A DNA stretch of 64,000 nucleotides from a virus: the IMG/VR virus record IMGVR_UViG_3300032315_001186, positions 9,072-73,071 of that record; one strand, written 5' to 3'. Positions 1,560-64,000 of this stretch are shown piece by piece. The translations under genes were made by a program, and so were the position numbers. Every line of letters starts with the position of its first letter. Within the stretch, counting starts at the first letter, position 1. Below the pieces are notes generated by a model. That model was not told the origin of the DNA. It saw only the letters and a program-made list of their open reading frames with translations, and did no database searches.

Positions 1560-3680
1560 TTAACAAGGTACACCCCATTGAGGTTTCTCAGCCGTCGTCC
1601 AAGATATTGGTGTCCCAGTATCGAAGTTAGTCGGTTGAACAGGGATTATTTCGACACACCAAGAACTAATATCTTGGTCGAACGAACTTGCGTTTAAGAA
1701 CATAGAGAACATATTGTTGGCATTAGCGGTGTCCCAATAGGCTATTGATTGATTGAAATTTGAACAACCTGAAAACGTAGAACTGAAGTTTGATACACTA
1801 GTGGTATTCCAAGATACTAATGGTTGGTTAAATAACGAACATCCCGCAAACGTAGTTCCCAAATTAGTTACGTTAAAACCACTAAAAATAGGCGAATTAA
1901 ATGATGAACAACTTCTAAATGTGTTTGCTAATGATACACTACCAATATTCAACATATCCCAGCTAGAAAGATTTTGGTTGAAAGAAATACATCCGAAAAA
2001 CATACCACTCATAAGTGTACAACTAGACATGTCCCAATTCGTCATTGGAGCGTTGAACAATGTACAGTTTCGGAACATTTCTGTCGTGTTAGTTACGGCT
2101 GACATTGTCCAACCTGAAAGATAAGGGAATAAAGTTATACTATTACAATTCTCGAACCAACTGTCCATACTCGTTACACCTTGTGTGTTTAATGTGTCTG
2201 TAAGTGCGTTGAGTGTTAAACCAGTACAGTTGAAAAATGCTCCAGTAGATTGAAGTGACCCGTAATTAATTTTAAGTTGACCCCATTGACTAATAGTTTT
2301 AAAATTATTTTTACTTGTACTATTCCCACTAAATGACCATCCCTCAATTGTACCCGTAATAGATACTGTGTAAGTACCTGGAGACACATATGTATGTGAA
2401 TTTGATGAAAAAAATGTAATTGTGTCGTACTGACCATCGCCCCAACTAACGAAGAAATTATAATTACCAAAACTCAACAATGGTAATTGAATCTGTTCAT
2501 TTGATGTTGTGGTTTCCCATGTACTAACAAAAGATGTTGGAACTATTGGGTCGGTTTGCGTTGGAGTTGGTGTTGCGTTAAGTGTTTGTGTTGGTGTTAA
2601 AGTATTAGTTGGTGTTGGTGTTTGTGTTGAACTCGAGGTTGGTGTTAAAGTATTAGTTGGAGTCAAAGTACTTGTTGGGGTAACTGTGGGTGTTCGAGTT
2701 GGAGTTGTCGTGATAGTTGGAGTCACAGTTGCTGAGGGTGTATTTGAGGGTGTAACCGCTAGACAGGCACAAGCTGGTTGATTACATATATTTTCAATAA
2801 TAAGTGCAGGATCAACAATATATGTATCTGGAGTACCTATAGTACTGTTCCAAAAATAATAACAATCTCCTTCAAATTGAATTCCACTGTCTTGTGGTAT
2901 TTCTATACTGTTTGAAATTGCAACGATCACCGAATTACTTGGAGGACAACAATTAATATATTCAAAAATGTTAAAAACTGTAGTTGGTGTGTTTGTCGGA
3001 GTAAGTGTTGGGGATGATGTAACAGAAGGTGTTAAACCAATAGTTTGTGTTGGTGTGACTGTAGAAGATGGTGTTGGTGTTGGATTATTAGAAGTCGGTG
3101 TTACGGTTGGTGTGGGTGTATGTGTTGGGGTTACCGTACTTGTGGGAGTATTCGATGGGGTTGCAATAATGTTATTACAAGATGTAACACTTGTAATTGT
3201 AGACCCTGAATTTTGATAATATAAAACAAAACCAGTTGTTGAGTTATCTTGTGTTGACGTAAGTGCTCTGTATCTATCCGCTGACACTACAACTATGGGT
3301 TCATCAGTTGATACACTAAAAACTTGATCACCAGGTCCTAAGGATGAAAGAGGTTTGGTTGTATATCCAATCAACAAAAGTGGTGTAAAGGCTCCAGCCA
3401 AACGACTACACGCAACTAATGAACTCGTCCTTAGAATATTAGAATCTGAGTAGACGTAAAATTTAGTTATCGATGGTGTCGTACTCGGAAAGTCAATTGT
3501 GTTAGTGATATTTTGACCTTCACTTGCAGTAATCAAGGTATTTGTTATGTACCAAACATTGATAGTCTCATTAGGTAAAATTTGTTGATTATCTATTAAT
3601 AGATTGTCACCACATCTTCGATAAGTAATCGAACTGATTTGAGATAGTGTATTTTGTATTGTTGACTTTTTACAGAACAT
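1560..3680 (-). CDS. surface/virion protein with Pro/Thr repeats, PKD-like domain and DUF285/BspA-type repeats
   Basis: TPT repeats; VSWGDG...HTYVSPGTYTVSITG (PKD-like); repeated FNQ.L..W.TS.V..M..MF..C units. Confidence 0.8.
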   Translation of the reverse strand: MFCKKSTIQNTLSQISSITYRRCGDNLLIDNQQILPNETINVWYITNTLITASEGQNITNTIDFPSTTPSITKFYVYSDSNILRTSSLVACSRLAGAFTPLLLIGYTTKPLSSLGPGDQVFSVSTDEPIVVVSADRYRALTSTQDNSTTGFVLYYQNSGSTITSVTSCNNIIATPSNTPTSTVTPTHTPTPTVTPTSNNPTPTPSSTVTPTQTIGLTPSVTSSPTLTPTNTPTTVFNIFEYINCCPPSNSVIVAISNSIEIPQDSGIQFEGDCYYFWNSTIGTPDTYIVDPALIIENICNQPACACLAVTPSNTPSATVTPTITTTPTRTPTVTPTSTLTPTNTLTPTSSSTQTPTPTNTLTPTQTLNATPTPTQTDPIVPTSFVSTWETTTSNEQIQLPLLSFGNYNFFVSWGDGQYDTITFFSSNSHTYVSPGTYTVSITGTIEGWSFSGNSTSKNNFKTISQWGQLKINYGSLQSTGAFFNCTGLTLNALTDTLNTQGVTSMDSWFENCNSITLFPYLSGWTMSAVTNTTEMFRNCTLFNAPMTNWDMSSCTLMSGMFFGCISFNQNLSSWDMLNIGSVSLANTFRSCSSFNSPIFSGFNVTNLGTTFAGCSLFNQPLVSWNTTSVSNFSSTFSGCSNFNQSIAYWDTANANNMFSMFLNASSFDQDISSWCVEIIPVQPTNFDTGTPISWTTAEKPQWGVPC

Positions 3681-9850: not shown

Positions 9851-11389
9851 ATGGCTCTACCTAAAAAAGTAATACCAAATATTAATTTAGTCCCTCCAAA
9901 AATTTTACTTGAGAGGAGAGAACAATTATTACAGGATATTACAGAAGACGGAACATATCTTCCAAAGAATTTGGGTTATGCCGAAATGGATAGAGGATTT
10001 TTAGATTTTGTTAAAAATGAACTTAAAACAGTTGTTGAGGGAAAAGTAATTCCAACAATTGACATTCTTATAACAACACAAAACTGGGCACAATTTACTC
10101 AAACTTGGTCTTTTCAAGATTTGAACGGCAACACCGAACCACCCTTTATTACGGTGGTGAGAGTTCCTGAAGTAAAATATGGTACAAATCCTGCGACTCT
10201 TTATAATATCCCAAACCAAAAAGAATTTTTCTATGCAGCTGTACCTACTTGGAATGGTAATGTAAAGGGGCTTGACATTTATAAAATACCACAACCAGTA
10301 CCTGTTGATATCTCGTTTAGTGTAAAAATTGTTTGTAATCGAATGAGAGAACTCAACGAGTTTAACAAAAATGTTCTTCAGACATTCGCATCACGTCAAG
10401 CGTACACTAAAGTTAATGGGCACTTTATCCCAATTGTAAACACAAACATAAGTGATGAATCTGTCACACAGGTTGATAAAAGAAGATTTTACATCCAAAA
10501 TTATGATTTCACACTTTTGGGATTCCTATTAGATCAAGATAAGTTCGAGGTAGCACCTGCGGTCTCTAGAGTTCTTAATGTTTTTGAGACCAATATGAAA
10601 CCCATAAATCGTAAAAGAAAAAGATTCCCTGTGAATGAAGGTGTCTTTGATCTTACGATTCAAGCGGTAAGAAACTCCCCTGTTATTAGGACAATCAGTG
10701 TTGATTATACAGGTACTTTTACAATTTTATCAACCCAAAATGTGAGTACCTATGATTTGTTTGTTAGGTTAAACACCAGTACAGAGTTTGACTATTATGG
10801 GACAAATGTTGTCAATTTTGAGGTGAATACTGGTGACCAGTTACGATTTGAAATTACTCAAGAAAATGCCGACCCAACTTCTACCATAACATATGGGGTA
10901 TCTTTTTTAGGTTCACCACAAAATTTAACTTTCGATTTACCAACCCCGTCAATTACCCCAACAAACACAATAACCCCTTCTATTACACCAACGAGTAGTT
11001 TGACACCAACACCATCAATAACCCCAACAAAGTCAACAACACCAACGAATAGTTTGACACCAACACCTACTATCACTCCGACAAAAACTTCTAGTTTATG
11101 TCAATCTTTGGAATTAATTTGTAATAATTATGAAATAACCAATACAACGTCTTCAGCACAACCACTTTTATTAGTATATTCAGCATGTACAAATCAACCG
11201 ACAGTATCATCAATTACTTTGAGTTCTGGACAAACCACTAACTTTTGTGCAGTAGCATACACAATAGCTTATTCTGGTGGTCATATAATTAATCAAACGG
11301 GAACTTGTGGAAAATTCTGTTCTTCATTTACAAACATTTTCCTACATATACCAAATTTGACTCCAACACCTACTCCAAGTCTATCGTAA
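9851..11389 (+). CDS. tail terminator/sheath stabiliser (T4 gp15-like) with appended Pro/Thr and Cys-rich tail
   Basis: PQPVPVDISFSVKI motif; position just upstream of the sheath gene. Confidence 0.55.
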   Translation: MALPKKVIPNINLVPPKILLERREQLLQDITEDGTYLPKNLGYAEMDRGFLDFVKNELKTVVEGKVIPTIDILITTQNWAQFTQTWSFQDLNGNTEPPFITVVRVPEVKYGTNPATLYNIPNQKEFFYAAVPTWNGNVKGLDIYKIPQPVPVDISFSVKIVCNRMRELNEFNKNVLQTFASRQAYTKVNGHFIPIVNTNISDESVTQVDKRRFYIQNYDFTLLGFLLDQDKFEVAPAVSRVLNVFETNMKPINRKRKRFPVNEGVFDLTIQAVRNSPVIRTISVDYTGTFTILSTQNVSTYDLFVRLNTSTEFDYYGTNVVNFEVNTGDQLRFEITQENADPTSTITYGVSFLGSPQNLTFDLPTPSITPTNTITPSITPTSSLTPTPSITPTKSTTPTNSLTPTPTITPTKTSSLCQSLELICNNYEITNTTSSAQPLLLVYSACTNQPTVSSITLSSGQTTNFCAVAYTIAYSGGHIINQTGTCGKFCSSFTNIFLHIPNLTPTPTPSLS

Positions 11390-33100: not shown

Positions 33101-33686
33101 ATATAAAAATTGGGAAGGTACTGAAGGTTTTGTATCTGGAATCACCTATGCTAATTTTAGTAACATTTTGAAACAAAAAACTACAGACCCGAGAGTAAGA
33201 GCAATGGTATTCTACACCGCATACAATAATGGACATGACGACAACCAATTTATTACGTTCAACTACGACCTAGGAGGTACCCCGTTAGGTGGATACCCAA
33301 TACCAAACATAAGTTATGGCGGATTGAATAGTTATATGTCAGATGTTTATACTTGTAAACAATTTCCAAATGGTGGTAGAGTTCCATTCGCTACCTTTGC
33401 AAGTTTTGAAAAATCAATTGAGTTTATCAAAAACTTGTATTTTACAACAAATAGTAACAATCTTTTAATACCTGATACTAAAATTGGTTATAATAATAAG
33501 TGGGTAACTGAAGCAGATTATGTTGAAAATATGTTAAACCTTTGGGCTTACTATTGGTCAAGAAAAAGATTCCAAACTTCAGAAGATTTCCAAAAATGGA
33601 AAACGAATAATACTGATCAGACAGAAACATTTGCAAAAGTAGGAAAGGAAGTTTATCAAAAACTTAAACAATTTAAGTTGATTTAA
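27153..33686 (+). CDS. very large baseplate hub protein (gp27/VgrG-like elements)
   Basis: VEALGCALIQPTMYF...NGAYQIQSVEHRI...FKTYFEGIR hub motif; position after the LysM gene. Confidence 0.55.
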   Translation: MADNLSRVNEDVFVVQSYDNIVLVDPNKVINQDGQVRERGIRQEDFVMYANLEAQMLPRTKLIQGQAQDDGIQTQVLASINFLRPGGKTFLDNTYTDQFTGLNSLTAEGINQPSIQQISKPNKSSEFYYTQNTINKQDTGLLGIESIAIKNTRSFTPTVDMVLIDTHGRALFEKGENSEYAFFFNLPYPTFYLTIKGYYGKAIKYQLILTKFSAAFESATGNYRITLQFYSYKYTVLAETQIGALFATPFMYASDFKITTEQSPSISASQVSVGDDKKTAINVRTTRGRQFISDVYKKYKSLGLLDPDFPEVSFPEFRAQLQSLQKNLETTFGQSDFTPLTNADEYFEILQTFRTAITDPTTESSWFRKYIDTDKLFILNQVNNKPQTQVWILNQQTRSNSQFVENALTELQQIVTKYKSVLQKNSTFGVGGTFTVEKLRYTSQIKTIEQIDASKSKDKALVQENSFVKLLNANDIDWIATYEARYKRKPLNELEWTTLRNEETQFFQTILDEALKDVKFPNYTFVFSDGVGQFEEIIYKTFGELEKQRSIVIEKLSLFLSKKIEGPNGLGFKPTMRNVMGIIFASVEAFYRLLNLVHKDAWSQRNNPLKKLACYGQGNDGVSPDIKNNNKDVNQNNLVNQEVYPWPLYLTKQIEKDGKQNYVVMYPGEQSELQRTRASDYQIWPEVQFVEEYIRGITKSYQSESQQSGNLSENDIGRIINRITVNAVEFPTSNAILSDLQDVKFLYEIYERVLLQTFWDRLSRPNAEKVGIIDSLSEMELINIRNALNSFSNPLITKLLKNTAFSSANYLQVLRNISNEGVGISWQQFIRGIFTSDYLRAKTQKDFSILSVATISSGAQNSSKDTSILKNVQEFIKSSSSNTTDLLDLYPFVDNSWVQQNLSNVNNNSSYNSTTRSLFLNDTLNYITNFQTIANTENNINRPFVNNSYLSFTEPNIVISNFPQQIGSNNFVDFNTYYTENRTLSKFAITEGSLSYNGNTGNLTPNQTVSMLNTPYFTNAFIEGVQNDRNDIQYPYLKAAYLFLNSLPLSTLREPLKDIVDVTSNVNNVSKDYLFATLTKFGAIHRLPYAWILKYGSIWHRYKKYVESGVDILDSVWKNVDVGQIYYPTTNSLQHQYVTKDLYGSGITIYAQTEILNPGSIESIQKKYVGFYPSLVNDVLFFYTGLDFLTGYTNNDLDKFVDEGLNIGATDATMREGIGFDPNFTNRYASLDFQGWFMTFNTKTSTKFNTTARNKTIVLPSFGTNYNQVKYECFKNNGTRLIMSQPILNNTAVNDGSIRFFWGAPNFGYFDNSSITKPAYNEYVNLIQPSKDNSNAFEMSNKYSNIEEIFGVFKTEILDEFETEFLNFSRSSRQFNSQELLSDDFVNRSFQQVFANCLVVDEVSKELTQTNYVNTCVTKQGKVLTEAIQKFLNYNIAFKFGNPGNFDRKLFGSVTTDDRYRVFDGYDFSPYVLGSLPGDGSGISLVQSELNNPESWKTLKTYVGFASVDGMKYSDNGSYITDFFITMNVGFTPENIQIVAPLVKIFATQKLGEPFNNYTRSDFVTEINDFYTTKNNFLNLVLNSLFNLLQKQLPQVEESTVKPLLTAIDGVQPKIELYQAFKSFNDKWIAGANFDEKTIFEEVLFLDRANRDVGDVLVDPFKLLEFFNSYASLDARVIDFVSKILVDNKFFMMPIPAYINWWGQGEVRNGVEPKSQTVEDIANNLFGIYNNVDTRDSKPAFLCYYVGNPSEHLDLNQNSNYGWRSDGFDFANQSQNSLATTNTKQNWANTNRVVGFNVDFGTRNQSIFSSINLDQNLGASTTEANKVITEMAAQAGGLRTSLGSVSLYNLYKTRSYNVRVEALGCALIQPTMYFNLRYVPMFNGAYQIQSVEHRIEAGSFKTYFEGIRMPFYSLAKIDTQLLSINNNLLSELVQQVRRLKQSSAPTTGTTNNISIVNSIQTNLRYTTAQPIFCDASIRSSELPYKNWEGTEGFVSGITYANFSNILKQKTTDPRVRAMVFYTAYNNGHDDNQFITFNYDLGGTPLGGYPIPNISYGGLNSYMSDVYTCKQFPNGGRVPFATFASFEKSIEFIKNLYFTTNSNNLLIPDTKIGYNNKWVTEADYVENMLNLWAYYWSRKRFQTSEDFQKWKTNNTDQTETFAKVGKEVYQKLKQFKLI

Positions 33687-33706
33687 TTCAATATCAATAT
33701 ATTTAT

Positions 33707-33946
33707 AATAAATCCACCGAAAAACCCATCGGTTTTCAGCCGATGGGATGGAAGGTGTGAATTGACTAAAAAAAACCAAATGAAAAACATCCAAATTAAA
33801 GGATATAAACAAACATCGTCAGGAACTGACGATTACAGACGTGGAGATGAAATAAGACCAACTATTGTTCACACAATCAATGAAGCGTCCAAAATTCTGA
33901 ACTTAGTTTCAGAAACCCAACCATCTTTAGTGGTTGGGTAGTTCAA
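33707..33946 (+). mobile_element. non-autonomous IS200/IS605-derived element A (left end + omega-RNA region + right end, tnpB deleted)
   Basis: Left hairpin CCCATCGGTT-TTC-AGCCGATGGG nearly identical to 63842-63864; right hairpin CCCAACCA-TCTTTAG-TGGTTGGG then TAGTTCAA; preceded by TTTAT. Confidence 0.8.
33810..33946 (+). ncRNA. putative TnpB omega-RNA (reRNA) scaffold
   Basis: TCGTCAG-GAA-CTGACGA hairpin, ...CGTGGAGAT block, TCTGAA...TTCAGA hairpin and right-end hairpin; same layout as the 3' region of the tnpB remnant at 63608-63710. The 5' limit is approximate. Confidence 0.6.
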
Positions 33947-33958
33947 TGAAAAAAGATT

Positions 33959-34183
33959 ATGGAACTACAAAATATTTTAGACAATTATTTGGGTAAAAGA
34001 ACGCGTTATACCCAAAAACAAGTAGCAAATGGCTTTAGTGAGGTTTGCGATTTAGATACAGGTGACTGTTATACTGTTAGAGAAAGAGACGGATTAATTG
34101 AGAGAGTTGACAATACAATGAGAACAAATAAAAAAATCCAAGTAGAAACATCTCACGGAATTAAACAATTATTAAATGGATAA
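33959..34183 (+). CDS. hypothetical protein, 74 aa
   Basis: ORF with EVCDLDTGDCYTV motif, tightly linked to the next gene. Confidence 0.7.
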   Translation: MELQNILDNYLGKRTRYTQKQVANGFSEVCDLDTGDCYTVRERDGLIERVDNTMRTNKKIQVETSHGIKQLLNG

Positions 34184-41140: not shown

Positions 41141-42331
41141 ATGGAAGTTGTAAAAAGAGACGGAACAAGAGAATATGTGAAATTTGAAAAAATTTCATCA
41201 AGAATCAAAAAGCAAACATATGGTTTGAATGAAGATTATGTTGATTACTTTGAAGTATCAAAAAAAGTAATTGCTGGTTTATATGACGGAGTGACAACGG
41301 AGGAACTAGATCGATTGGCTGCGGAAACATCAGCATCACTAGTAACTAATCATCCTGATTATTCTACCTTGGCGGCACGTATTGCGATTACGTCGTTGTA
41401 TAAAAGAGTTGATAAAAGGTTCACGGCTACAGCAGATAAGTTATATCATTACATCAATCCTAAAACAGGAGAGAAAGCGGGTATGATTTCAGATGAAGTG
41501 TACAAAGTAATTGTTCAACACGGAAAAGAATTGGATGCGATGGTTGTCCATGATCGTGATTTTAATTTTGATTACTTTGGTTTCAAAACCTTAGAAAAAA
41601 GTTATCTACTTAAAATGTTTGGTGAGGTTGCAGAAACCCCCCAACATTTATACATGAGGGTTGCTGTAGGTATTTGGCTTGATAATTTGGAAATGGTACA
41701 AAAAACCTATGATATGTTATCACAAGGGTTATTTACCCATGCAACACCTACGTTATTTAATTCTGGAACCAAACGACCACAATTGAGTTCTTGTTTCTTG
41801 TTAGATATTGATGATGATTCAATTCCTGGAATTTACAAGACATTATCAGATTGTGCGGTGATATCTCAAAATGCTGGAGGTATAGGTGTAAATATTCACA
41901 AAATAAGAGCTAAAGGTGCTTATATTAAAGGAACCAATGGATCTTCAAATGGTATTATCCCTATGTTGAAGGTGTTTAATGAAACTGCCCGGTATGTTGA
42001 TCAGTGTTTTGTTCCAGATACAAAAGTTAAAACAAATCTTGGTTATAAAAAAATTTCAGAGATTACTGTTGGTGATATGGTTTTGAATTCAAACGGTACT
42101 TACAATCCAGTATCAAATGTCAAGAAGTTCGAAAAGAATGAAAGAGATTTTATAACCATCAATTCTTCTATTGGTGAGAATACTGTAACACGAGGGCACC
42201 TATATCTTACAATAAAAAATGGTAAGAAAGATGAAAACTTAACATATAAAATTCAAAACAAGTTGGTAAAAGCGGAATGGGTTGAAGCTGAAAATTTGAC
42301 AACTGAAGATATTTTGATTAAAATGAAATAA
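41141..42331 (+). CDS. nrdA: ribonucleotide reductase alpha subunit, N-terminal part + N-intein
   Basis: ATP cone (VVKRDG), ATPTLFN, LSSCFL, ARYVDQ then intein block A CFVPDTKV. Confidence 0.93.
   Translation: MEVVKRDGTREYVKFEKISSRIKKQTYGLNEDYVDYFEVSKKVIAGLYDGVTTEELDRLAAETSASLVTNHPDYSTLAARIAITSLYKRVDKRFTATADKLYHYINPKTGEKAGMISDEVYKVIVQHGKELDAMVVHDRDFNFDYFGFKTLEKSYLLKMFGEVAETPQHLYMRVAVGIWLDNLEMVQKTYDMLSQGLFTHATPTLFNSGTKRPQLSSCFLLDIDDDSIPGIYKTLSDCAVISQNAGGIGVNIHKIRAKGAYIKGTNGSSNGIIPMLKVFNETARYVDQCFVPDTKVKTNLGYKKISEITVGDMVLNSNGTYNPVSNVKKFEKNERDFITINSSIGENTVTRGHLYLTIKNGKKDENLTYKIQNKLVKAEWVEAENLTTEDILIKMK
42005..42328 (+). mobile_element. split intein N-fragment (108 aa)
   Basis: C1 CFVPDTKVKT..G...I..I.VGD.V; block B TRGH; WVEAENL; ends at TAA. 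Confidence 0.85.
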
Positions 42332-42340
42332 TTTAAAACT

Positions 42341-42538
42341 ATGAAAAATACAAATATTCAATTAGACCATCAAATTTTAGATGGTGAAATCGAAAGTGAA
42401 ATTGTTAATCTAAATTTAGATGAGATTGAGTTAGTAACTATAGACTCCATTCAGGAAACAAAAATAGATACTGAAGTATATGATTTGGAAATCGAGCAAC
42501 TCCCAAATTATACTACAGATATAAGTTTAGTTCACAAT
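42341..42538 (+). mobile_element. split intein C-fragment (66 aa), +1 residue Gly
   Basis: Block F VYDLEIE, block G LVHN, followed by GGC GGG GGT. Confidence 0.85.
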
Positions 42539-45217
42539 GGCGGGGGTAGGAGAAAAGGTTCTATTGCGGTATATCTTGAACCTTGGCATGCAGATGTATT
42601 TGACTTTTTAGACCTTAGAAAAAACCATGGTAAGGAAGAAATGAGAGCTCGTGATTTGTTTTTAGCTATGTGGACACCAAACCTATTTATGGAAAGAGTT
42701 GAGAGTGATGGACTATGGTCTTTATTTTCACCTGAGGAAGTGCCTGGTTTGATTGATGCATATGATACACCTGATTCGAAAGCTTTCACTGAGCTTTATA
42801 CAAAATACGAACGGGAGGGTAGAGCCATCAAAACTATCAAAGCTCGTGAACTTTGGGAAAAGATTTTGGATTCACAAATCGAGACTGGTACTCCATATAT
42901 GTTGTACAAAGATGCGGCCAACTACAAGTCTAATCAAAAAAATTTGGGTACAATCAAATCGTCAAATTTGTGTATAGCAGGAGACCAAAGGGTTGTGACT
43001 TCCCTTGGGTATTTAACTGCAAAAGAACTCAATGAAATTGGTCAAAAGTTGGAATTGTTTAACAATAAAGAAATGGTTTTATCATCTGAAATGAAGTTAA
43101 GAGCAGAACAGGAAGATGTATACAAAATCATTTTAGAAAATGGGATGGAACATAAAGTGACACCATACCATGGTATTCCAGTTTTAAAATCTTCTCGTAA
43201 AATTGAAAGGGTTGAGTGTAAAGACTTGAGAGTAGGTGACGTGGTTATGGTACAAACGAAGAAAGGTTTATTTGGTACCAAAGAAATGATAGATGAGGCT
43301 TTTTTGTTGGGTATGTATCAATCAGATGGGACACAAAGTGAGGGATCAATTATGCTTGATTTGTGGGAAAATGATTTTGATTTAGTCGAGGATATAGAAA
43401 ATAGACTTCAAAAATTGTATTCTAAATATGAATACAAACCAAGATACTCGAACAAAGGAGGAAAATTCATAGATTGTACTGTTTCATTTTCACCTGTTAA
43501 GAAAAAGAGATTAACAACCGACTTTTTCAAAAAAACTTTCCCATTTAACAAAGGATATGTACCAAGTTGGATTTGGGAATCAAATGAAGAAACACAATGG
43601 TCATATCTAAAAGGTTTGTTCTATGCCGATGGTTCAGTATTCGTTAGTAAATCGCGAGGTAACCCAATTCAATTGTGTTATGCCGATATAAATTTAGATT
43701 TTCTCAAAGAGCTACAACTTATTTTCAATAATTTAGGACTTCAATCTTCCATTAGATTACTTACAAAGGGTGGGGATAGACTACTACCAAATGGTAAAGG
43801 AGGACAATCAATTTATAAAACCAAAGATTGTTATAGATTAATAATTGGAAATAAAAATGATGCTTTGATATTGAATACTAAGACTGGATTTTTAGACAGA
43901 AAAAATATTATCTTAGATGAAAAAGAATACAGAGATAACACCAAAAAAGGTCATAAAGTTAAATCTATTGAGTATGTAGGTAAAGAGGATGTCTATTGCC
44001 CAACAATCAATAACGATGAACACCTTTTTGTTTCACAAGGAATGTTAACATACAATTGCACTGAAATTCTAGAATATACAGACAAAAACGAGATTGCGGT
44101 TTGTAATTTAGCGTCAGTAGCACTTCCTAAATTTGTGGACATTCCATCAGGAAAAGTACGTGAGAAAAACAAAAAGTTGCGGACTTACAACTTCCAAAAG
44201 TTATATGAAGTTGTTTATCAAATGACAATTAACTTGAATCAAGTAATCGATATAAATTATTATCCTACAATAGAAACAAGAACTTCAAATTTCAAACATA
44301 GACCCATAGGACTAGGAGTGCAGGGTTTAGCGGATACTTTTGCAATGTTATCCCTACCTTTTGAAAGTCCTGAGGCTCAAAAATTGAATAGTGAAATATT
44401 TGAAACAATTTATTTTGCGGCGTTGTCAGCATCAAAAGATTTGGCAATAAAACATGGTCCATATGAAACATACGAAGGATCACCAGCATCATTTGGAAAG
44501 TTACAATTTGATTTGTGGGATGTCAGTATGGAGAATCTTTCTGGTTTATGGGATTGGAGTACATTAAAATCTCAAATTGAAAAACATGGACTTAGAAATT
44601 CCTTACTTGTAGCTCCGATGCCTACCGCGAGTACCGCACAAATTCTTGGTAATAACGAATGTTTTGAACCTTTTACAACTAACTTATACAAAAGAAATGT
44701 ATTAAGTGGTGAATTTGTAATCATCAATAAACATTTGGTTGAGGATTTGGTTAACCTTGGACTTTGGAACGATAGAATTCGATTGAAACTATTTGACGGA
44801 AATGGGTCAGTCCAAAAGATAGATGAAATACCATCTGAGATCAGAGAAGTTTACAAAACTGTTTGGGAAATGAAGGGTAAAACTATTTTGGATATGGCTC
44901 GAGACAGAGCAATTTTTATTGACCAATCACAATCTCTAAATATTTTTATGCAAGATGTAACACAGTCTAAGTTATCTTCGGCACATATGTATGGATGGAA
45001 ATTAGGATTGAAAACAGGAATGTATTATTTGAGAACTAAGGCTAAAGCTGCGGCGATCAAAGGATTGGGTGTTGATATGTCAGCGTTGAATACTCCAGAA
45101 ATACAAGAAAGTTTCAAACCCAAACCACTCGAAAACAATAATTTGACATTGACAGAAGATATGATAAACAAAGTTTGTTCTTTAGATGATCCAAATTGTT
45201 TGACATGTAGTTCATAG
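42341..45217 (+). CDS. nrdA: ribonucleotide reductase alpha subunit, C-terminal part with C-intein and a second, full intein
   Basis: VHN|GGGRRKGSIAVYLEPWHAD, SNL|C...N|CTEI, VCNLAS, PMPTASTAQ, KTGMYYLR, terminal CLTC. Confidence 0.93.
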   Translation: MKNTNIQLDHQILDGEIESEIVNLNLDEIELVTIDSIQETKIDTEVYDLEIEQLPNYTTDISLVHNGGGRRKGSIAVYLEPWHADVFDFLDLRKNHGKEEMRARDLFLAMWTPNLFMERVESDGLWSLFSPEEVPGLIDAYDTPDSKAFTELYTKYEREGRAIKTIKARELWEKILDSQIETGTPYMLYKDAANYKSNQKNLGTIKSSNLCIAGDQRVVTSLGYLTAKELNEIGQKLELFNNKEMVLSSEMKLRAEQEDVYKIILENGMEHKVTPYHGIPVLKSSRKIERVECKDLRVGDVVMVQTKKGLFGTKEMIDEAFLLGMYQSDGTQSEGSIMLDLWENDFDLVEDIENRLQKLYSKYEYKPRYSNKGGKFIDCTVSFSPVKKKRLTTDFFKKTFPFNKGYVPSWIWESNEETQWSYLKGLFYADGSVFVSKSRGNPIQLCYADINLDFLKELQLIFNNLGLQSSIRLLTKGGDRLLPNGKGGQSIYKTKDCYRLIIGNKNDALILNTKTGFLDRKNIILDEKEYRDNTKKGHKVKSIEYVGKEDVYCPTINNDEHLFVSQGMLTYNCTEILEYTDKNEIAVCNLASVALPKFVDIPSGKVREKNKKLRTYNFQKLYEVVYQMTINLNQVIDINYYPTIETRTSNFKHRPIGLGVQGLADTFAMLSLPFESPEAQKLNSEIFETIYFAALSASKDLAIKHGPYETYEGSPASFGKLQFDLWDVSMENLSGLWDWSTLKSQIEKHGLRNSLLVAPMPTASTAQILGNNECFEPFTTNLYKRNVLSGEFVIINKHLVEDLVNLGLWNDRIRLKLFDGNGSVQKIDEIPSEIREVYKTVWEMKGKTILDMARDRAIFIDQSQSLNIFMQDVTQSKLSSAHMYGWKLGLKTGMYYLRTKAKAAAIKGLGVDMSALNTPEIQESFKPKPLENNNLTLTEDMINKVCSLDDPNCLTCSS
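42971..44056 (+). mobile_element. intein (362 aa) with LAGLIDADG endonuclease at the NrdA catalytic Cys
   Basis: SNL|CIAGDQRV...TPYH...LLGMYQSDG...LKGLFYADG...VYCP...TYN|CTE. Confidence 0.92.
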
Positions 45218-45251
45218 AACTACATCACAAAATTCAAGGTGGTATATTTAT

Positions 45252-45481
45252 ATGAAACCCATCAGTCTTCAACCGATGGAATAAAAGATGGGAATTGATT
45301 GTAAAAAAAACCAAATGAAAAACATCCAAATTAAAGGATATAAACAAACATCGTCAGGAACTGACGATTACAGACGTGGAGATGAAATAAGACCAACTAT
45401 TGTTGGTACAATCAATGAAGCGTCCAAAATTCTGAACTTAGTTTCAGAATCCCAATCATCTTTAGTGGTTGGGTAGTTCAA
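45252..45481 (+). mobile_element. non-autonomous IS200/IS605-derived element B (degenerate left end + omega-RNA region + right end)
   Basis: About 175 bp nearly identical to element A; GAAT...TCAA right end; preceded by TTTAT. Confidence 0.78.
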
Positions 45482-45485
45482 ACGT

Positions 45486-45947
45486 ATGGCTCAAGGAAAG
45501 ACATATGGAATAAGTTTTCCATTCGTGGATAGTATGAAAGGTAAGTATTTGGAGTTAACTGAATATGTTGCTGAAGAAATCCGAACGAATCTTATTCATC
45601 TTTTACTCACAAGAAAAGGTAGTAGATATTTTCTACCGAATTTTGGGACTAGATTGTATGAATACATTTTTCAACCAATGGACGGACCTACCTTTTCTGA
45701 AATTGAATCTGAGATACGAGACTCTGTACAACAATTTTTACCCAACTTACAAATCACAAATATAGTCATACAGGCAGCTTCTGATGAAGCTGCTGGTATG
45801 ACAGTGACAACTGCGGGAAATGTGGTTAATCCTGAGTTATCAATACCAAATCAAAATGTCTCAGAATATACAGCTAAAGTTAGAATTGATTACGCAATTT
45901 CTAACGATGTCTTTAATTCTAAAGATTTTGTAATTATTAATATCTAA
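45486..45947 (+). CDS. baseplate wedge protein (T4 gp25/P2 gpW-like)
   Basis: LLLTRKGSRYFLPNFGTRL..FQP motif. Confidence 0.9.
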   Translation: MAQGKTYGISFPFVDSMKGKYLELTEYVAEEIRTNLIHLLLTRKGSRYFLPNFGTRLYEYIFQPMDGPTFSEIESEIRDSVQQFLPNLQITNIVIQAASDEAAGMTVTTAGNVVNPELSIPNQNVSEYTAKVRIDYAISNDVFNSKDFVIINI

Positions 45948-57744: not shown

Positions 57745-60700
57745 ATGGAAAGAAGGTTTTTTCGAACTAACGGAGCATCAGGAGCCGATACACCATTTGA
57801 CAATATTGTTGGCTTACAAACGGTAACTGGTGGAGGGTTAACTCAAGGTAATTTTGAGTTCGATATTTCTTTGTCCGAAAAAAACAATAGAACCTTCAAC
57901 ATCGGAGTTTTTGGAGATCCAATATCATTGGATGTTTTAGGATTGACCTCGGTAAACGAGTCACGAGAATTACAATCAAAAGAATACAGAGTTTTTCCGA
58001 ATATTGACTTATCGTTAGTAACCAATTTCACTCTTTATGGTTCGCTGAGAAAACGTCTAGAAGTCTCAGTTCAACGAATACTTGGTTTTTTCCCTGCAGG
58101 GCTACAAATAGATTTTTTAGATTTAGATTATTCTACAGGAAATACCGCTTACAATATTTCTTACAATCAGATATCAGATTTGACAACATTAACAATAAAT
58201 GTTAGTAAAATCCAGAATCCTTTTTCAATCGATTATAGTTCTAAATCAAGAATTAATTTACAAAATAGAGAGTCGGAATTTTCACCAATACGAGATTTAA
58301 CTAATCGTTTCAGGGATTACGTCTTGGTGGTTGATGGGGTTAATTATACTATTATAGATTTTAGACCATCAGATAGTTTAACTTCAGGAACTATCACATT
58401 AAAAATTACAGGTAGACCTTTTGACACGAGTGTCACAAATTCAAATCTTTTAATAAGACCGAGTGATTTTTATGTTGAAAAAATATTTTCTGAAGATTTT
58501 GACGAAGTAGTTCAATTTTTATTGAACAGATTAGTTACACCAAAATATACTGCAACTTTTGCAGTACCTGTCGAGGGGGACAATGGAATAGTTGCAATAC
58601 AAGCTAAATCGATTACCTTTCCTCTAGATGGTATTTGGAATCTAGACATTAGGACTAACAATTTCGAAAACTATTTGAGTAAACTTAACGAAATCGGCCA
58701 ACAATTTGATGAGTTTAAAACCAACTTAGTTACAAGGTTTTTGACAACAAACTCTTTTTTAGAATTTGACACCCAAGACCAAAAAGTGTTCAAAGTACTT
58801 CAAATTTATGGTAGGAGTTTTGACCAAATAAAATTATACATTACCGCACTTGCGAATATGACAAGTGTACAATACCAACTAGGTGACACCATACCAGATG
58901 AGTTGTTAAAATATTTAGCACAAACGTTGGGTTGGAACATAAATGTTTCACCAATTGTTCAACAAGGTTATTTACAATCAACTTTATCAACATCAGGAGT
59001 AACTCAATATGAAGGTTACTCTCGAGAATTAACAGAAAATGAAATTAATTACAACTTTTATCAAAACTTAATTTTAAATTCAGCCTATTTGTATAAATCA
59101 AAAGGAACGAGAAAAGCAATCGAGTTTTTACTTAGATTTTTGGGTATACCCGAAGCTGTTACCGAGTTTAACGAATTTGTATATGTTGCAGATCAAAGAA
59201 TTGATATGCAAAAATTTTATGACCAATTGTTTCAACTTACAGGTGGAACATATGTTAATGAGGTTACCGAATACGATTCTGAAATAACTTTTTCGATTTA
59301 CGGAATAACCTATACAGGTTTCAGTTCTTCAACAATCGTACAATCAGTGAGTGTTAATTTCGACGACTACCCTGTTGATGAATTGGGATATCCATATGCT
59401 CCTATCGAAACTGACAACTATTTTTTCGAAAAAGGTGCGGGGTGGTTCGAATCAACTCCACAACATAGAAGTCCTGAAGTTGTTGTTCCAACATTTTCTG
59501 TCTTTACAGGTTCAAGTCCATTCGTACAAACAGAATTACAACCATTTACTTACGGTCAAGAATATTTTGAGAGGTGGAGATCATTCCCTTATATGAATTT
59601 GGGTTTCAATCTAAAATTAGTTAGAGACAACAAAAAATCGTGGCAACCACCTATTTTAAGAAAAAGTTCTAATGGTGGACTTAACGCTTACTATATTGTA
59701 GGAGATGATCGATTAGCAATTAATGCTAAGAATACCGAAATATATTTAAATCCAGGTCAGGGTTTATTATATGACGTGTGGTATATGTCTAGAAATTTTA
59801 ACTATCCTATACCAAATTCAGGTATGACACCTGCTTACCCTAGTTTAGGGAGTTATAATTGGAGTTTCATTAACCCAGAAGCGGATAAGAAAACTTTTTT
59901 CGAATTTCAAATAGATTTTATTAGATCGACAATAAATGCTAGAGACAGATGGTTTAGTACTGACGGGAAAACGAGTGGTTATTCATCACTTTTAGATATT
60001 TTTTATAATTTCTTACAGTCCGTTCAAAATGCTGATGTACCTAACTATAATTTTACTTATAAAAAATTAATAGAATATGTTGATGGTTTGGGTACAAATT
60101 GGATACGATTGATAGAACAATTTGTTCCAGCAACAACTATATGGCAAACTGGTATAAGATATGAGAACTCTCCAATGCAGAGGCAAAAGTATGTTTGGAA
60201 AAAACAAGAACCATGTTACTTGGTTTCATTACAAGTTGCTAGAGTTCCTGTTACTCCAAGTCCAACAGTCTCAGTCACGGCAACTCTGAATCAAACACCG
60301 ACAGCTACTCCTACTAATACAATAACACCATCTATTACACCAACTATAACCCCTACAAATACGTTGACACCAACTGTAACTCCTACTGTTACACCGACTA
60401 AATCAGTTACACCGACACCTAGTATAACAATTGGGTTGACTCCGAGTGTGACCCCAACGAACACTAATACTAAAACCCCAACAGTTTCCACAACCGTAAC
60501 AAAGACACCTTCGAACACTGCAACAAATACGGTAACACCAACTAATACTGTAACACCGACGAACACACGTACGGTTACACCAACGACCACACCAACGAGA
60601 ACACAGACACCCACACCATCAGTAACATGTTCTGGTAGTACAGTTACTTGTTATGAGTTCTTACTTGATAACACGGGTATTGGTGCAACAACATATGGGT

Positions 60701-61413: not shown

Positions 61414-63606
61414 ATGGCTGGTACTTTTAACGCAATTTATTCAGTAACAGGATCATGTCAAAATATTAATGCTGGTTCTATTACAATTTCTGCTTTCGGT
61501 GGAATAGAACCTTATTTTTATACTTGGTTAGACCCTTTATCATTTACAGGATCACAAATTTCAGGATTGGGTCCTGGGATTTATAATGTATTCATCAACG
61601 ATAGTGCTGCACCTGTCAATAACTATCTTTATTTAAATATTTCAGTATCAAGTGGATTATGTTTGAATCTCATAACTTCAGCGAATACCACTTGTGGTGA
61701 CTCAAATGGTAGTATTATTGTTTCAGCAATTACTGATTACAACGAAATAACCTACTCATTACTTGATAGTAACAACAACTTACTAAGTCAAATAGGTAAT
61801 AATCAATTGAGTTGCCAGTTTACTAATTTAAGTGCTGGAACATATTCAATATTAGCGAATAGTTTAGCTGGTTGTTCTGCGCGAACCGAAACAATAATCA
61901 TAAATTCGGGTCAGACATTAGACTTTGGTTTTTATATTGTGAATGACACCGAATGCGATGTAAATCCGACTGGTAAAATTTTTGTAACAGGTGTCACAGG
62001 TAATGGACCATTTTTATATGAATGGACAAATGGTTTCACAGGAACATCAATAACAGGGTTAACTCAAGGTGTTTATGGTTGTACTGTTAGAAGTTCTGAT
62101 AATTGTGTTTTGAGTAAAGCCGCTTCGGTAGATTTTGTTCCTAGTTTAGGTTTAGGTTCTTGGAGTGCAGCAACAATACCTACTTGTTTCAACAATGATG
62201 GATCTTTAATTCTGAACATTACAGGTGGAACAGGCCCATACTACTATTCTGGTTCCAATAGTTACATTACAGTTTCTTATTCTCAAACACAAACATTCAC
62301 AAATTTACCAGAAGGAATATTCACGGTTGATGTGACAGATGCTACTTTTTGCAAACAAACTTTTTCGACAAATTTAGATATTGTAAATACAATAAATAAT
62401 GTCACATTTACGGTTAATGATTCTTTTTGTAGTGTTTCAGGTGGTTCAATTAATATACAAGTATTTGGTGGTTTACCACCTTTCATTTATAGTTTATCAG
62501 GATCTAGTGAATCTAAAAATGCAACAACTAACACTTACGAATATAGTTTTGAAAATTTAAGTCCTGGAGAATATAACATTACCGTTTCGAATATTGGACA
62601 GTGTACATACACACAAAATTTTACGGTATTAGCTCAAAATAAATTCACACATTCAATTTCAACATCAGGTACAACTTGTGGAAATAACAATGGTGTCTTA
62701 TCAATAGAAATTTCGACAGGTGGTACCGCACCTTACATATATGTATTATCTAATGGTTTTAGTTTTCAGACCGATGCATTGTCATATTCGTTCTTGAATT
62801 TACCATCGGGGTCATATACCTATCAAGTCACAGACGTAGATGGTTGTCGTCAAGAAGGTACAACTTTCATTTTGGGTTCACAATCAGTAAACTTTGAACT
62901 GTACCCAATACCTTGTATTTCAGGTGGAAATGGATCCATTACCACCCTCATCAGTAGTGGTACTCCACCATTTACCTTCGATTGGTCAAGTAACGTATCA
63001 GGTAATCCTCAAGAAATATACATAACAGGTTTGACCGCGGACACTTATACACTTCTTATTGTCGATGCAAACGGATGTAGTTATTCCGCCTCAACCATAG
63101 TCAGTTGTTTAGATATCATTTCAACTTATCAGGTATATGGAATGAGTCAAAATAACTTCTCTTATATTTCAGGTTCACGAAGAGGTATGTTAGAAATGTT
63201 GAATCAAGGTTATGCTAACTTGACTTCAGGATTGGGAAATTGTTTATTGAGTGCAACTACGTTTACTGTAGAATCCCAAATACAAGGTGTGACCATCAGT
63301 AGTTTGTTTTTTACAGGTTCAACACTACTTCAAATACCTTCAGATGAACAATGGTATAGTGCGGTTTATTCATTATTATCACCCTACGCACAAGTACTAA
63401 CAATTGATAATCAAAATAGTGAACTCACTATTGAAGTACCAAATAACCCACCTAATCCTGTTTTCACAGTCAATTTATTAATTGATTATGTAATAAATTG
63501 TTTATCTACACCGACTCCTACGGTTACACCTACTGTAACACCAACTAGTTCAGTTACCCCAACATTCACACCAACAAATTCAGCCACACCAACACCTTCA
63601 ATCTAA
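61414..63606 (+). CDS. SprB-repeat (beta-sandwich) adhesin-like/tail fibre protein
   Basis: Repeated C...NGSI......GG..PY.Y.W....L..G.Y...V.D..GC units. Confidence 0.75.
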   Translation: MAGTFNAIYSVTGSCQNINAGSITISAFGGIEPYFYTWLDPLSFTGSQISGLGPGIYNVFINDSAAPVNNYLYLNISVSSGLCLNLITSANTTCGDSNGSIIVSAITDYNEITYSLLDSNNNLLSQIGNNQLSCQFTNLSAGTYSILANSLAGCSARTETIIINSGQTLDFGFYIVNDTECDVNPTGKIFVTGVTGNGPFLYEWTNGFTGTSITGLTQGVYGCTVRSSDNCVLSKAASVDFVPSLGLGSWSAATIPTCFNNDGSLILNITGGTGPYYYSGSNSYITVSYSQTQTFTNLPEGIFTVDVTDATFCKQTFSTNLDIVNTINNVTFTVNDSFCSVSGGSINIQVFGGLPPFIYSLSGSSESKNATTNTYEYSFENLSPGEYNITVSNIGQCTYTQNFTVLAQNKFTHSISTSGTTCGNNNGVLSIEISTGGTAPYIYVLSNGFSFQTDALSYSFLNLPSGSYTYQVTDVDGCRQEGTTFILGSQSVNFELYPIPCISGGNGSITTLISSGTPPFTFDWSSNVSGNPQEIYITGLTADTYTLLIVDANGCSYSASTIVSCLDIISTYQVYGMSQNNFSYISGSRRGMLEMLNQGYANLTSGLGNCLLSATTFTVESQIQGVTISSLFFTGSTLLQIPSDEQWYSAVYSLLSPYAQVLTIDNQNSELTIEVPNNPPNPVFTVNLLIDYVINCLSTPTPTVTPTVTPTSSVTPTFTPTNSATPTPSI

Positions 63607-63607
63607 G

Positions 63608-63825
63608 ATGAACTACCAAACCACTAAAGATGGTTTGGTTTCTTGGGCTGATTGACTAACGTCCATCATATCTCCACAAGCGTGAATTTATGCCGTTCCA
63701 GCAGTATTATTTTTTGTAAAGGCAAAGTGTTTAATGTTATTCGCAGCAAGAACATCTCTATCGTGAGTTGTTCCGCAGGAACTACAAGTCCAAACCCTAT
63801 CACTTAACTTTAATTGTTTATTTAT
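63608..63825 (-). pseudogene. tnpB: tnpB 3' fragment + omega-RNA/right end of IS200/IS605 element C, interrupted by element D
   Basis: Minus frame INKQLKLSDRVWTCSSCGTTHDRDVLAANNIKHFAFTKNNTAGTA* (Zn ribbon + RuvC-III), then GAAACCAAACCATCTTTAGTGGTTTGGTAGTTCAT. Confidence 0.88.
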
Positions 63826-64000
63826 TAAATCCACCGAAAAACCCATCGGTCTTTAGCCGATGGGATGGAAGGTGGTGTTTGAATTATAACTATTTTTTTT
63901 TAAAAAACAAGTTTTTCCACTTTTTGTAGATATTTATACGTATAAATTTTTTAAAGTATAAATGTTAAAATCATACAAATATAAACTTAAACCAAATGCG
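63826..64000 (+). mobile_element. left end of IS200/IS605 (tnpB-type) element D, running out of the window
   Basis: TAAATCCACCGAAAAACCCATCGGTCTTTAGCCGATGGGATGGAAGG, shared with element A. Confidence 0.82.
63962..64000 (+). CDS. tnpB: start of TnpB (partial)
   Basis: MLKSYKYKLKPNA matches the typical IS605 OrfB N-terminus, downstream of an IS left end. Confidence 0.75.
   Translation, partial: MLKSYKYKLKPNA

Follow-up and report, generated by a model that had tools for sequence, protein, structure and literature searches.

Elements A and B, two short stretches of a viral genome, carry the hairpin ends of a TnpB transposable element and no nuclease gene. The question they raise is whether such remnants still supply guide RNAs to a TnpB made from another element, or whether they are transposon debris. 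An earlier note on this DNA took the former position, with dispersed guides by which a TnpB acting in trans would cut co-infecting relatives. The window, i.e., the whole stretch of DNA that was analysed (64,000 nt), comes from a viral record of 73,071 nt, of which it forms the final 64 kb; CheckV puts the completeness of this record at 24%. The features needed at the outset are as follows.

33707 to 33946, plus strand: element A, very probably a TnpB-less PATE/MITE-like derivative of 240 nt with an intact, parent-like left end; the site is seamless in 13/13 empty relatives
33725 to 33747, plus strand: left-end hairpin of A, CCCATCGG, a 7-nt loop and CCGATGGG, by direct reading
33785 to 33946, plus strand: predicted scaffold region of A, a homologue of the parent element's final 162 nt that takes in the right-end hairpin (33916-33938) and the tail TAGTTCAA
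45252 to 45481, plus strand: element B, very probably a derivative of 230 nt that shares the deletion junction of A and has a shortened, diverged left end
45320 to 45481, plus strand: predicted scaffold region of B, 91% identical to the last 162 nt of the parent

Elements A and B and their parent

Both elements start directly after TTTAT and end in a hairpin with the stem CCCAACCA/TGGTTGGG, followed by TAGTTCAA; the ends are subterminal hairpins and not terminal inverted repeats. A and B are 97% identical across 180 nt (33767-33946 and 45302-45481), with 5 substitutions in 171 aligned columns, and the junction of the internal deletion is the same in both (alignment A2). The common deletion and about 175 bp of near-identity reported in the earlier note are thereby borne out, and the coordinates given there prove exact when read against the empty alleles. 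The left end of B lacks 12 nt and is strongly diverged from the parent-type end.

Neither A nor B has a nuclease or transposase gene. The sole frame in them, of 59-63 aa, is what remains of the TnpB C-terminus; it has no Pfam match and was rejected as a gene, being the frame of the TnpB tail. The loss of the nuclease, with hairpins and right end kept, agrees with the earlier description, and the right part is homologous to that of a parent. A tRNA/tmRNA search found none.

The parent is a 1359-nt, TnpB-only IS200/IS605 element with an open frame of 402 aa, present in loci L029, L032 and L043. Nucleotides 3-51 of A match nt 3-51 of the L029 element at 96%, and nt 79-240 match nt 1198-1359 at 91%; taken together, A and B match L029 on the left at nt 3-51 or 16-52 and on the right at nt 1198-1359 (about 91%). 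A and B match both ends of the element only, and they are therefore internal-deletion derivatives. The parent TnpB has OrfB_IS605, TNB and HTH domains (Pfam) and is similar to ISDra2 TnpB over residues 3-381 (E 1e-79). Thus we hold with high confidence, from the sequence comparison, that A and B are non-autonomous PATE/MITE-like internal-deletion derivatives of an ISDra2-related, TnpB-only IS200/IS605 element. The 91% match to the last 162 nt of the parent also upholds the reading of A and B as TnpB-element derivatives that keep the right part predicted to encode an omega-RNA. The alignments show that one ancestral deletion took about 1140 nt, which comprised the tnpB promoter and all except the last ~50 codons, and left the left-end hairpin and a 162-nt right part. 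They show in addition that this derivative reached at least three sites, namely A, B and the site of L046.

A 24-nt pattern from the right end was found at 51 loci in IMG/VR; among 185,579 species genomes it was found in 2 stretches only, both on short MAG contigs. The home of the parent element family is almost only phage genomes. TnpB homologues were found in 427 of 50,697 phage records, and the B stretch is present in lake-water metagenomes of 14 studies, which may include the source sample itself. The region around the elements codes for gp25-like, Baseplate_J-like and gp32-like proteins, an intein-bearing ribonucleotide reductase and a SprB-repeat protein, and among isolates Flavobacterium phages come closest, at 25% identity. 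The large subunit of the ribonucleotide reductase (42341-45217; Pfam Ribonuc_red_lgC 8e-170, Intein_splicing and LAGLIDADG_3) lies directly upstream of B and is split by an intein whose homing-endonuclease domain is of the LAGLIDADG type, so that two kinds of selfish element are found side by side here. Several large proteins of the window, among them the SprB-repeat protein (61414-63606), share Thr/Pro-rich repeat linkers of the TPTxTPT type (10942-11058, 60294-60584 and 63513-63593, and 2545-3150 on the opposite strand).

Target motif, empty alleles and predicted guides

The motif ATATTTAT, which ends in TTTAT, lies immediately upstream of both elements. Its positions and those of the predicted guides are listed here.

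33699 to 33706, plus strand: promoter-like motif ATATTTAT at A, present in 13/13 site-A relatives; its last 5 nt are the TTTAT target at 33702-33706, directly 5′ of the left end
45244 to 45251, plus strand: the same motif at B; its TTTAT (45247-45251) serves B as target-adjacent motif
7329, 11624, 17375, 33699, 45244, 56802 and 63930 (plus strand), 3703 and 17414 (minus strand): copies of ATATTTAT upstream of gene starts
33947 to 33962, plus strand: predicted 16-nt guide of A, TGAAAAAAGATTATGG, overlapping the start of a 74-aa gene (33959-34183)
45482 to 45497, plus strand: predicted guide of B, ACGTATGGCTCAAGGA, covering the start codon of the gp25-like gene (45486-45947)

TTTAT was found directly 5′ of the left end in 14/14 new loci, as was to be expected if it is the target motif that it had been taken for, and it precedes the left end also at A, B, D, L046, L007, L029, L006 and L012. 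L168 has TTCAT instead.

Coding sequence takes up 93% of the window, yet 7 of the 8 plus-strand copies of ATATTTAT lie between genes (binomial 7e-8). TATTTAT stands a few nt upstream of the ATG of the gp25-like gene in 66/66 empty relatives, and the motif before this gene is kept in phages down to 57% protein identity. ATATTTAT is also found upstream of tnpB in each subfamily compared. The motif is thus probably a phage promoter, judging from its placement and conservation, and the target motif of the transposon is probably its last 5 nt; we presume that ATATTTAT resembles the T4 late promoter. Since TTTAT ends a promoter-like motif that lies just upstream of genes, an inserted element would be transcribed into the leader of the downstream gene. 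Expression of the elements would rest on this putative phage promoter, because the deletion removed the element's own.

Two contigs from RNA libraries bear on site B. One of 258 nt (depth 2.1) covers 45241-45498, i.e., the whole of B and both junctions, with carry-over of DNA possible; the other bridges the empty B allele and, like the first, is no proof of transcription. These libraries were available as assembled contigs, in which starts, ends, strand and level of RNA are not readable. Uncovered parts in libraries X15-X20 are uninformative, and the shares of 0.23-0.35 in RNA runs come from four runs only.

Empty sites were looked for in related phages, as the earlier note had proposed, and were found at both positions. 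A search for relatives of site A returned 17 loci, 13 of which were examined (L056-L068), with L069-L072 left out as partial matches of 32-41% identity. The site is empty in all 13 and reads ...ATATATTTAT|TGAAAAAAGATTATGG. A is a precise 240-nt insertion after TTTAT, with no duplication of the target, since the relatives have nothing between TTTAT and the flank. For site B 76 loci were returned and 74 examined, L142 and L145 being without upstream sequence; 8 are occupied and 66 empty. Both states are found among the 15 loci with 99% gp25 identity (8 occupied, 7 empty). The downstream genes work without the element, because most alleles are empty and the empty state is ancestral.

The guide of A is present exactly after TTTAT in two empty alleles, L056 and L062; six close relatives differ from it at guide position 2 or 3, and five distant relatives differ more. 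No exact match to the guide of B was found in the 66 empty B sites. The nearest of these read TTTAT|ACATATGGCT or TTTAT|AAATATGGCT, as against ACGTATGGCT in B, and differ at guide position 2 or 3. Thus the claim that the guides match the empty alleles next to TTTAT holds for A and fails for B as far as exact matches go. B does lie before the gp25-like gene, as stated earlier, and its predicted guide covers the start codon of this gene (Pfam GPW_gp25 4.8e-12). L007 is a further occupied copy, with another left end and the flank ACATATGG; natural flank variants are ACATATGG and AAATATGG.

Among the close empty alleles (L056-L068 and L073-L101) variation clusters at the second and third base after TTTAT, the variants being TG, TGG, TT and TA at site A and ACA, AAA, TCA and TCG at site B. 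The variation at these bases could reflect an unconstrained spacer or escape from guide matching.

The retained right part and its possible partners

The length of right end retained was scored by BLAST over 35 distinct sites (loci L005-L055). Twelve of them have the element at full length, 7 run into the end of the sequence, 9 retain 120-182 nt (six independent deletions) and 7 retain 25-71 nt; none retains 183-1212 nt. L045, scored at 46 nt, appears by eye to be a PATE from a different family, whose body of ~190 nt resembles a scaffold, and the low score arose because the reference set did not have its own family. A scan with the left end found three further elements with left and right ends and without tnpB. 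Three independent junctions (A/B, L011 and L028) lie at one conserved AAAACATCC stretch. There is also a 105-nt mini-element, at one site in eight contigs (L009, L010, L019, L022, L023, L027, L034 and L049), which has a left-end hairpin and, of the right-end hairpins, just the last two, and is too short for the full scaffold.

The two parts of the derivative have diverged unequally. Copies of the A/B derivative differ from one another by 7-25% in the left part and by 1-5% in the right (Fisher p 0.02 to 3e-7). B and L007 differ at 14 of 57 left-end positions as against 5 of 162 in the right part (Fisher 7e-6), with flanks 97.4% identical. The very different left ends of these two may represent independent insertions at one hot spot or decay of the left end. 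In alignment A2 (A, B, L007, L046 and L050) the left-end part was seen to diverge 5-10 times faster than the right.

In ISDra2 the omega-RNA consists of 116 nt of scaffold and 16 nt of guide, and the 5′ portion from -231 to -117 can be dispensed with (Karvelis 2021; Nakagawa 2023); A and B retain 162 nt as against the 116 nt required there. A common fold (z between -4.8 and -3.4) is predicted for A, B, L029 and L006, and between parent and copies loops vary and stems are kept. Across an alignment of seven sequences pairing is kept in 94.9% of cells, and 4 pairs have changed on both sides, a number reached by 1 of 500 shuffles; all four changes come from the divergent L006. The scaffold of B has six of six predicted helices intact (z = -4.75), and its right-end stem shows one C>T that gives a G-U pair. 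In A a GGT>CAC change weakens the helix at 33858-33872 and breaks 2 pairs that are kept in the other 5 distinct sequences. By sequence reading, GAG at 33844-33846 of A (-103 to -101) could pair with UUC at -5 to -3, a candidate for a pseudoknot like that of ISDra2. The copy at L007 has a 9-nt deletion within a conserved stretch; therefore copies of the A/B type do decay.

An alignment of 16 right ends across subfamilies supported the terminal hairpin alone. Rfam 15 gave no family at gathering score in the window (Rfam may hold no model for TnpB omega-RNA), and a permissive Rfam scan of 33600-34050 gave chance-level matches only, with E up to 10. A group I intron (IStron) was considered and rejected, with no intron model matching the window.

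Genes for a cognate nuclease were placed by the earlier note at 63.6-64 kb, where two further elements are found.

63608 to 63825, minus strand: element C, a dead 3′ remnant with the last 74 codons and the right end of another TnpB subfamily (Pfam TNB 2.5e-8)
63826 to 64000, plus strand: element D, a cognate-type left end and the first 13 tnpB codons (ATG at 63962), cut by the end of the contig

The matching ends are thus confirmed for D, which has only 13 codons, and not for C, which is dead and non-cognate, its subfamily being 43% identical to the parent TnpB of A and B. C has a premature TAA. It is 97% identical over 239 nt to L016, in which the same site is intact and a 407-aa frame is open. 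D sits inside C, with its TTTAT target at 63821-63825 within C and an internal ATATTTAT at 63930-63937. A metagenome contig, L168, has a left end near-identical to that of D, followed by an intact D-type TnpB of 402 aa. A metagenome scan for the C-D junction gave no match, and the D-type element that a further scan brought up lies at a different site. G011, another contig with an A-like copy, has a cognate element (94% identity) that is likewise cut at the contig end. On contigs with B only, the TnpB seen is of the non-cognate C type, with 5-18% of the genome available.

D is nested in the tnpB of C (63608-64000), and both this record (G000) and G011 (41760-42178) end inside a D-type element. 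That two contigs end in this way suggests a multi-copy or polymorphic element at which assemblies break.

The search suggested earlier for more copies and an intact tnpB or tnpA covered the full 73,071-nt record. Beyond A, B, C and D it found no related place; tnpB is present there as the remnant in C and as the 13 codons of D before the contig end, and there is no Y1 transposase. TnpA was found in 1 of 10 other phage records, G007, which has a 136-aa TnpA (Pfam Y1_Tnp 2e-32) and a 382-aa TnpB; its element follows TTTAT and has a left-end hairpin identical to that of A, and a right end with the same loop and a TAGTTCA tail. L153 and L154 are like G007. Two relatives rated 98-100% complete, G008 and G009, have neither TnpB nor TnpA. 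G002 (257,166 nt, rated 100% complete) has a 145-nt orphan right-end remnant at locus L021, and its whole record has neither a TnpB domain nor a Y1 transposase. The recent precise insertion of A would have been the work of a Y1 TnpA of this type, supplied in trans. The left end of B is probably too decayed for TnpA and B is probably fixed in place, because this end is without 12 nt and much diverged.

Possible guides in trans, decay and known systems

Our best overall explanation, in which our confidence is evenly balanced, is that A and B are PATE/MITE-like derivatives with a guide RNA used in trans and with element-first homing. The retained right part would fold as an omega-RNA scaffold, with the adjoining 16-nt flank as guide, and a D-type TnpB made in the same cell would load the RNA of A or B. 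The loaded TnpB would then cut TTTAT and flank in sister or co-infecting genomes without the insertion, and recombinational repair would copy the element into the cut genome. Homing of this type would serve the element first and any benefit to the phage second. That RNA of A and B is used in trans as guides today we rate a little short of an even chance. Such use is plausible because six independent TnpB-less derivatives keep 120-182 nt and the right part diverges far less; the orphan remnant in the TnpB-less, complete G002 and the lack of TnpA on the own contig are points against it. The reading given in the earlier note therefore stands in its account of the derivatives, of TTTAT and of guides in empty alleles, and is weakened by the guide of B, mismatched in 66/66, and by the broken helix of A. 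The term "CRISPR-like" used there overstates the case, because each guide is fixed by its insertion site with no adaptive acquisition; there are two dispersed copies and no repeat-spacer array.

A substantial minority of our confidence goes to inert relics, non-autonomous remnants with no present RNA function that are carried passively, A being occasionally moved by a TnpA. Conservation of the right part would then be due to recent origin and to the needs of the TnpA ends and not to guide function. Decay is indeed seen in the helix of A, the 9-nt deletion of L007 and the truncated left end of B; seven sites have 25-71 nt only by BLAST, the orphan remnant persists in complete G002 without TnpB, the guide of B is matched by no empty B site, and the own promoter is gone with no Rfam match. 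However, TnpA requires the terminal hairpin region only, whereas six independent deletions have left 120-182 nt in place and retained lengths of 183-1212 nt are absent, the right part is 5-10 times less diverged than the left end, and stems are kept while loops vary. Another reading has the elements influence the next gene in cis and give no guide RNA, be it by forming a structured 5′ leader, by acting as terminator or insulator, or by encoding the 59-63-aa peptide. It would suit elements that lie between a promoter-like motif and the next start codon, fold strongly and have a persistent open frame. It is nevertheless very improbable, as the same module is found at unrelated sites and the frame is the C-terminal tail of TnpB, without a Pfam match here and, in ISDra2, disordered and dispensable (Karvelis 2021; Nakagawa 2023).

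Selection by the phage itself is the further alternative. Fixed guides selected by the phage would let one TnpB cut relatives at several conserved genes in co-infection, a matter of marker exclusion and competition rather than mere selfishness of the element. The targets do lie at conserved gene starts, with real empty alleles in co-occurring lake phages; B has no usable left end and yet an intact scaffold; and the right-end 24-mer is in 51 viral loci as against 2 stretches in 185,579 species genomes. The free-standing homing endonucleases of phages offer an analogy (review PMC13565253). Such a weapon is nonetheless improbable, with two cassettes only in 73 kb, a guide of B that mismatches every empty allele seen, neither TnpB nor TnpA in G008 and G009 (98-100% complete), and a phage benefit that is inseparable from element drive by sequence alone. 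A wider proposal, which we regard as unlikely and offer tentatively, is that lytic lake phages may selectively keep TnpB-less omega-RNA modules as dispersed fixed guides, expressed because TTTAT would be the tail of a phage promoter, with which one unlinked TnpB gene could drive or defend several loci during co-infection. The signs that would speak for selective keeping are the bimodal retained length and the decay of the left end while the scaffold stays.

If the dispersed-guide reading is true, it would amount to RNA-guided, multi-locus homing and exclusion between phages, a step between the guides of selfish transposons and a guide array. Active cassettes would be a natural case of TnpB homing between co-infecting lake-phage genomes with the guide unlinked from the nuclease, and TnpB could then be tested as an RNA-guided homing endonuclease in phages. 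The coexisting occupied and empty alleles, intact targets and motif-adjacent variation would in that case make the borrowing of TnpB by PATEs testable. If the cassettes are inert, they are ordinary transposon decay in a phage genome.

Palindrome-associated transposable elements (PATEs) of IS200/IS605 are described by Meers et al. 2023, e.g., in Geobacillus stearothermophilus, and the Discussion of that paper states that PATEs often encode omega-RNAs, which would need TnpB in trans from another element. A and B are thus a phage example of a kind of element already described in bacteria, since the core idea of PATEs and trans-acting TnpB is in print there. The literature search found no description of such cassettes in phages; Extended Data of Meers et al. 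may detail omega-RNA PATEs further. Like A and B, the PATEs of that paper have both ends and no protein gene, and they are mobilised in trans by TnpA. Unlike them, A and B are in a lytic T4-like lake phage and not a bacterial chromosome, their target motif is within a conserved promoter-like motif, occupied and empty alleles are found together in natural phage populations, and the left end of B is decayed.

ISDra2 (Karvelis 2021; Nakagawa 2023) shares with the A/B family an RNA from the 3′ end of tnpB and the right end, a guide taken from the flank and, as a candidate in A and B, a pseudoknot partner ~103 nt upstream of the end. The motif is TTTAT in A and B as against TTGAT in ISDra2, A and B are without tnpB, and their family is known from sequence alone; unlike in ISDra2, the tnpB frame of the A/B family ends 5 nt before the right end. 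Working in trans has an engineered precedent in the preprint of Zedaveinyte et al. on the mini-IStron, where TnpB was equally active with omega-RNA from a separate construct, and activity of TnpB with RNA from separate plasmids is likewise on record in the literature. A PATE with IStron ends is also shown in that preprint; A and B are without a group I intron (Rfam).

Homing of transposons between co-infecting phages is listed in Table 1 of the review PMC13565253 as "transposon non-restorative homing". The free-standing homing endonucleases of T-even phages (Seg and Mob) covered in that review have the same outcome as proposed here, whereby the allele without the element is cut in a co-infecting phage and the element is copied in. 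In A and B, by contrast, recognition would be by an RNA guide and TTTAT, and the spreading cassette would have no linkage to the gene for the nuclease.
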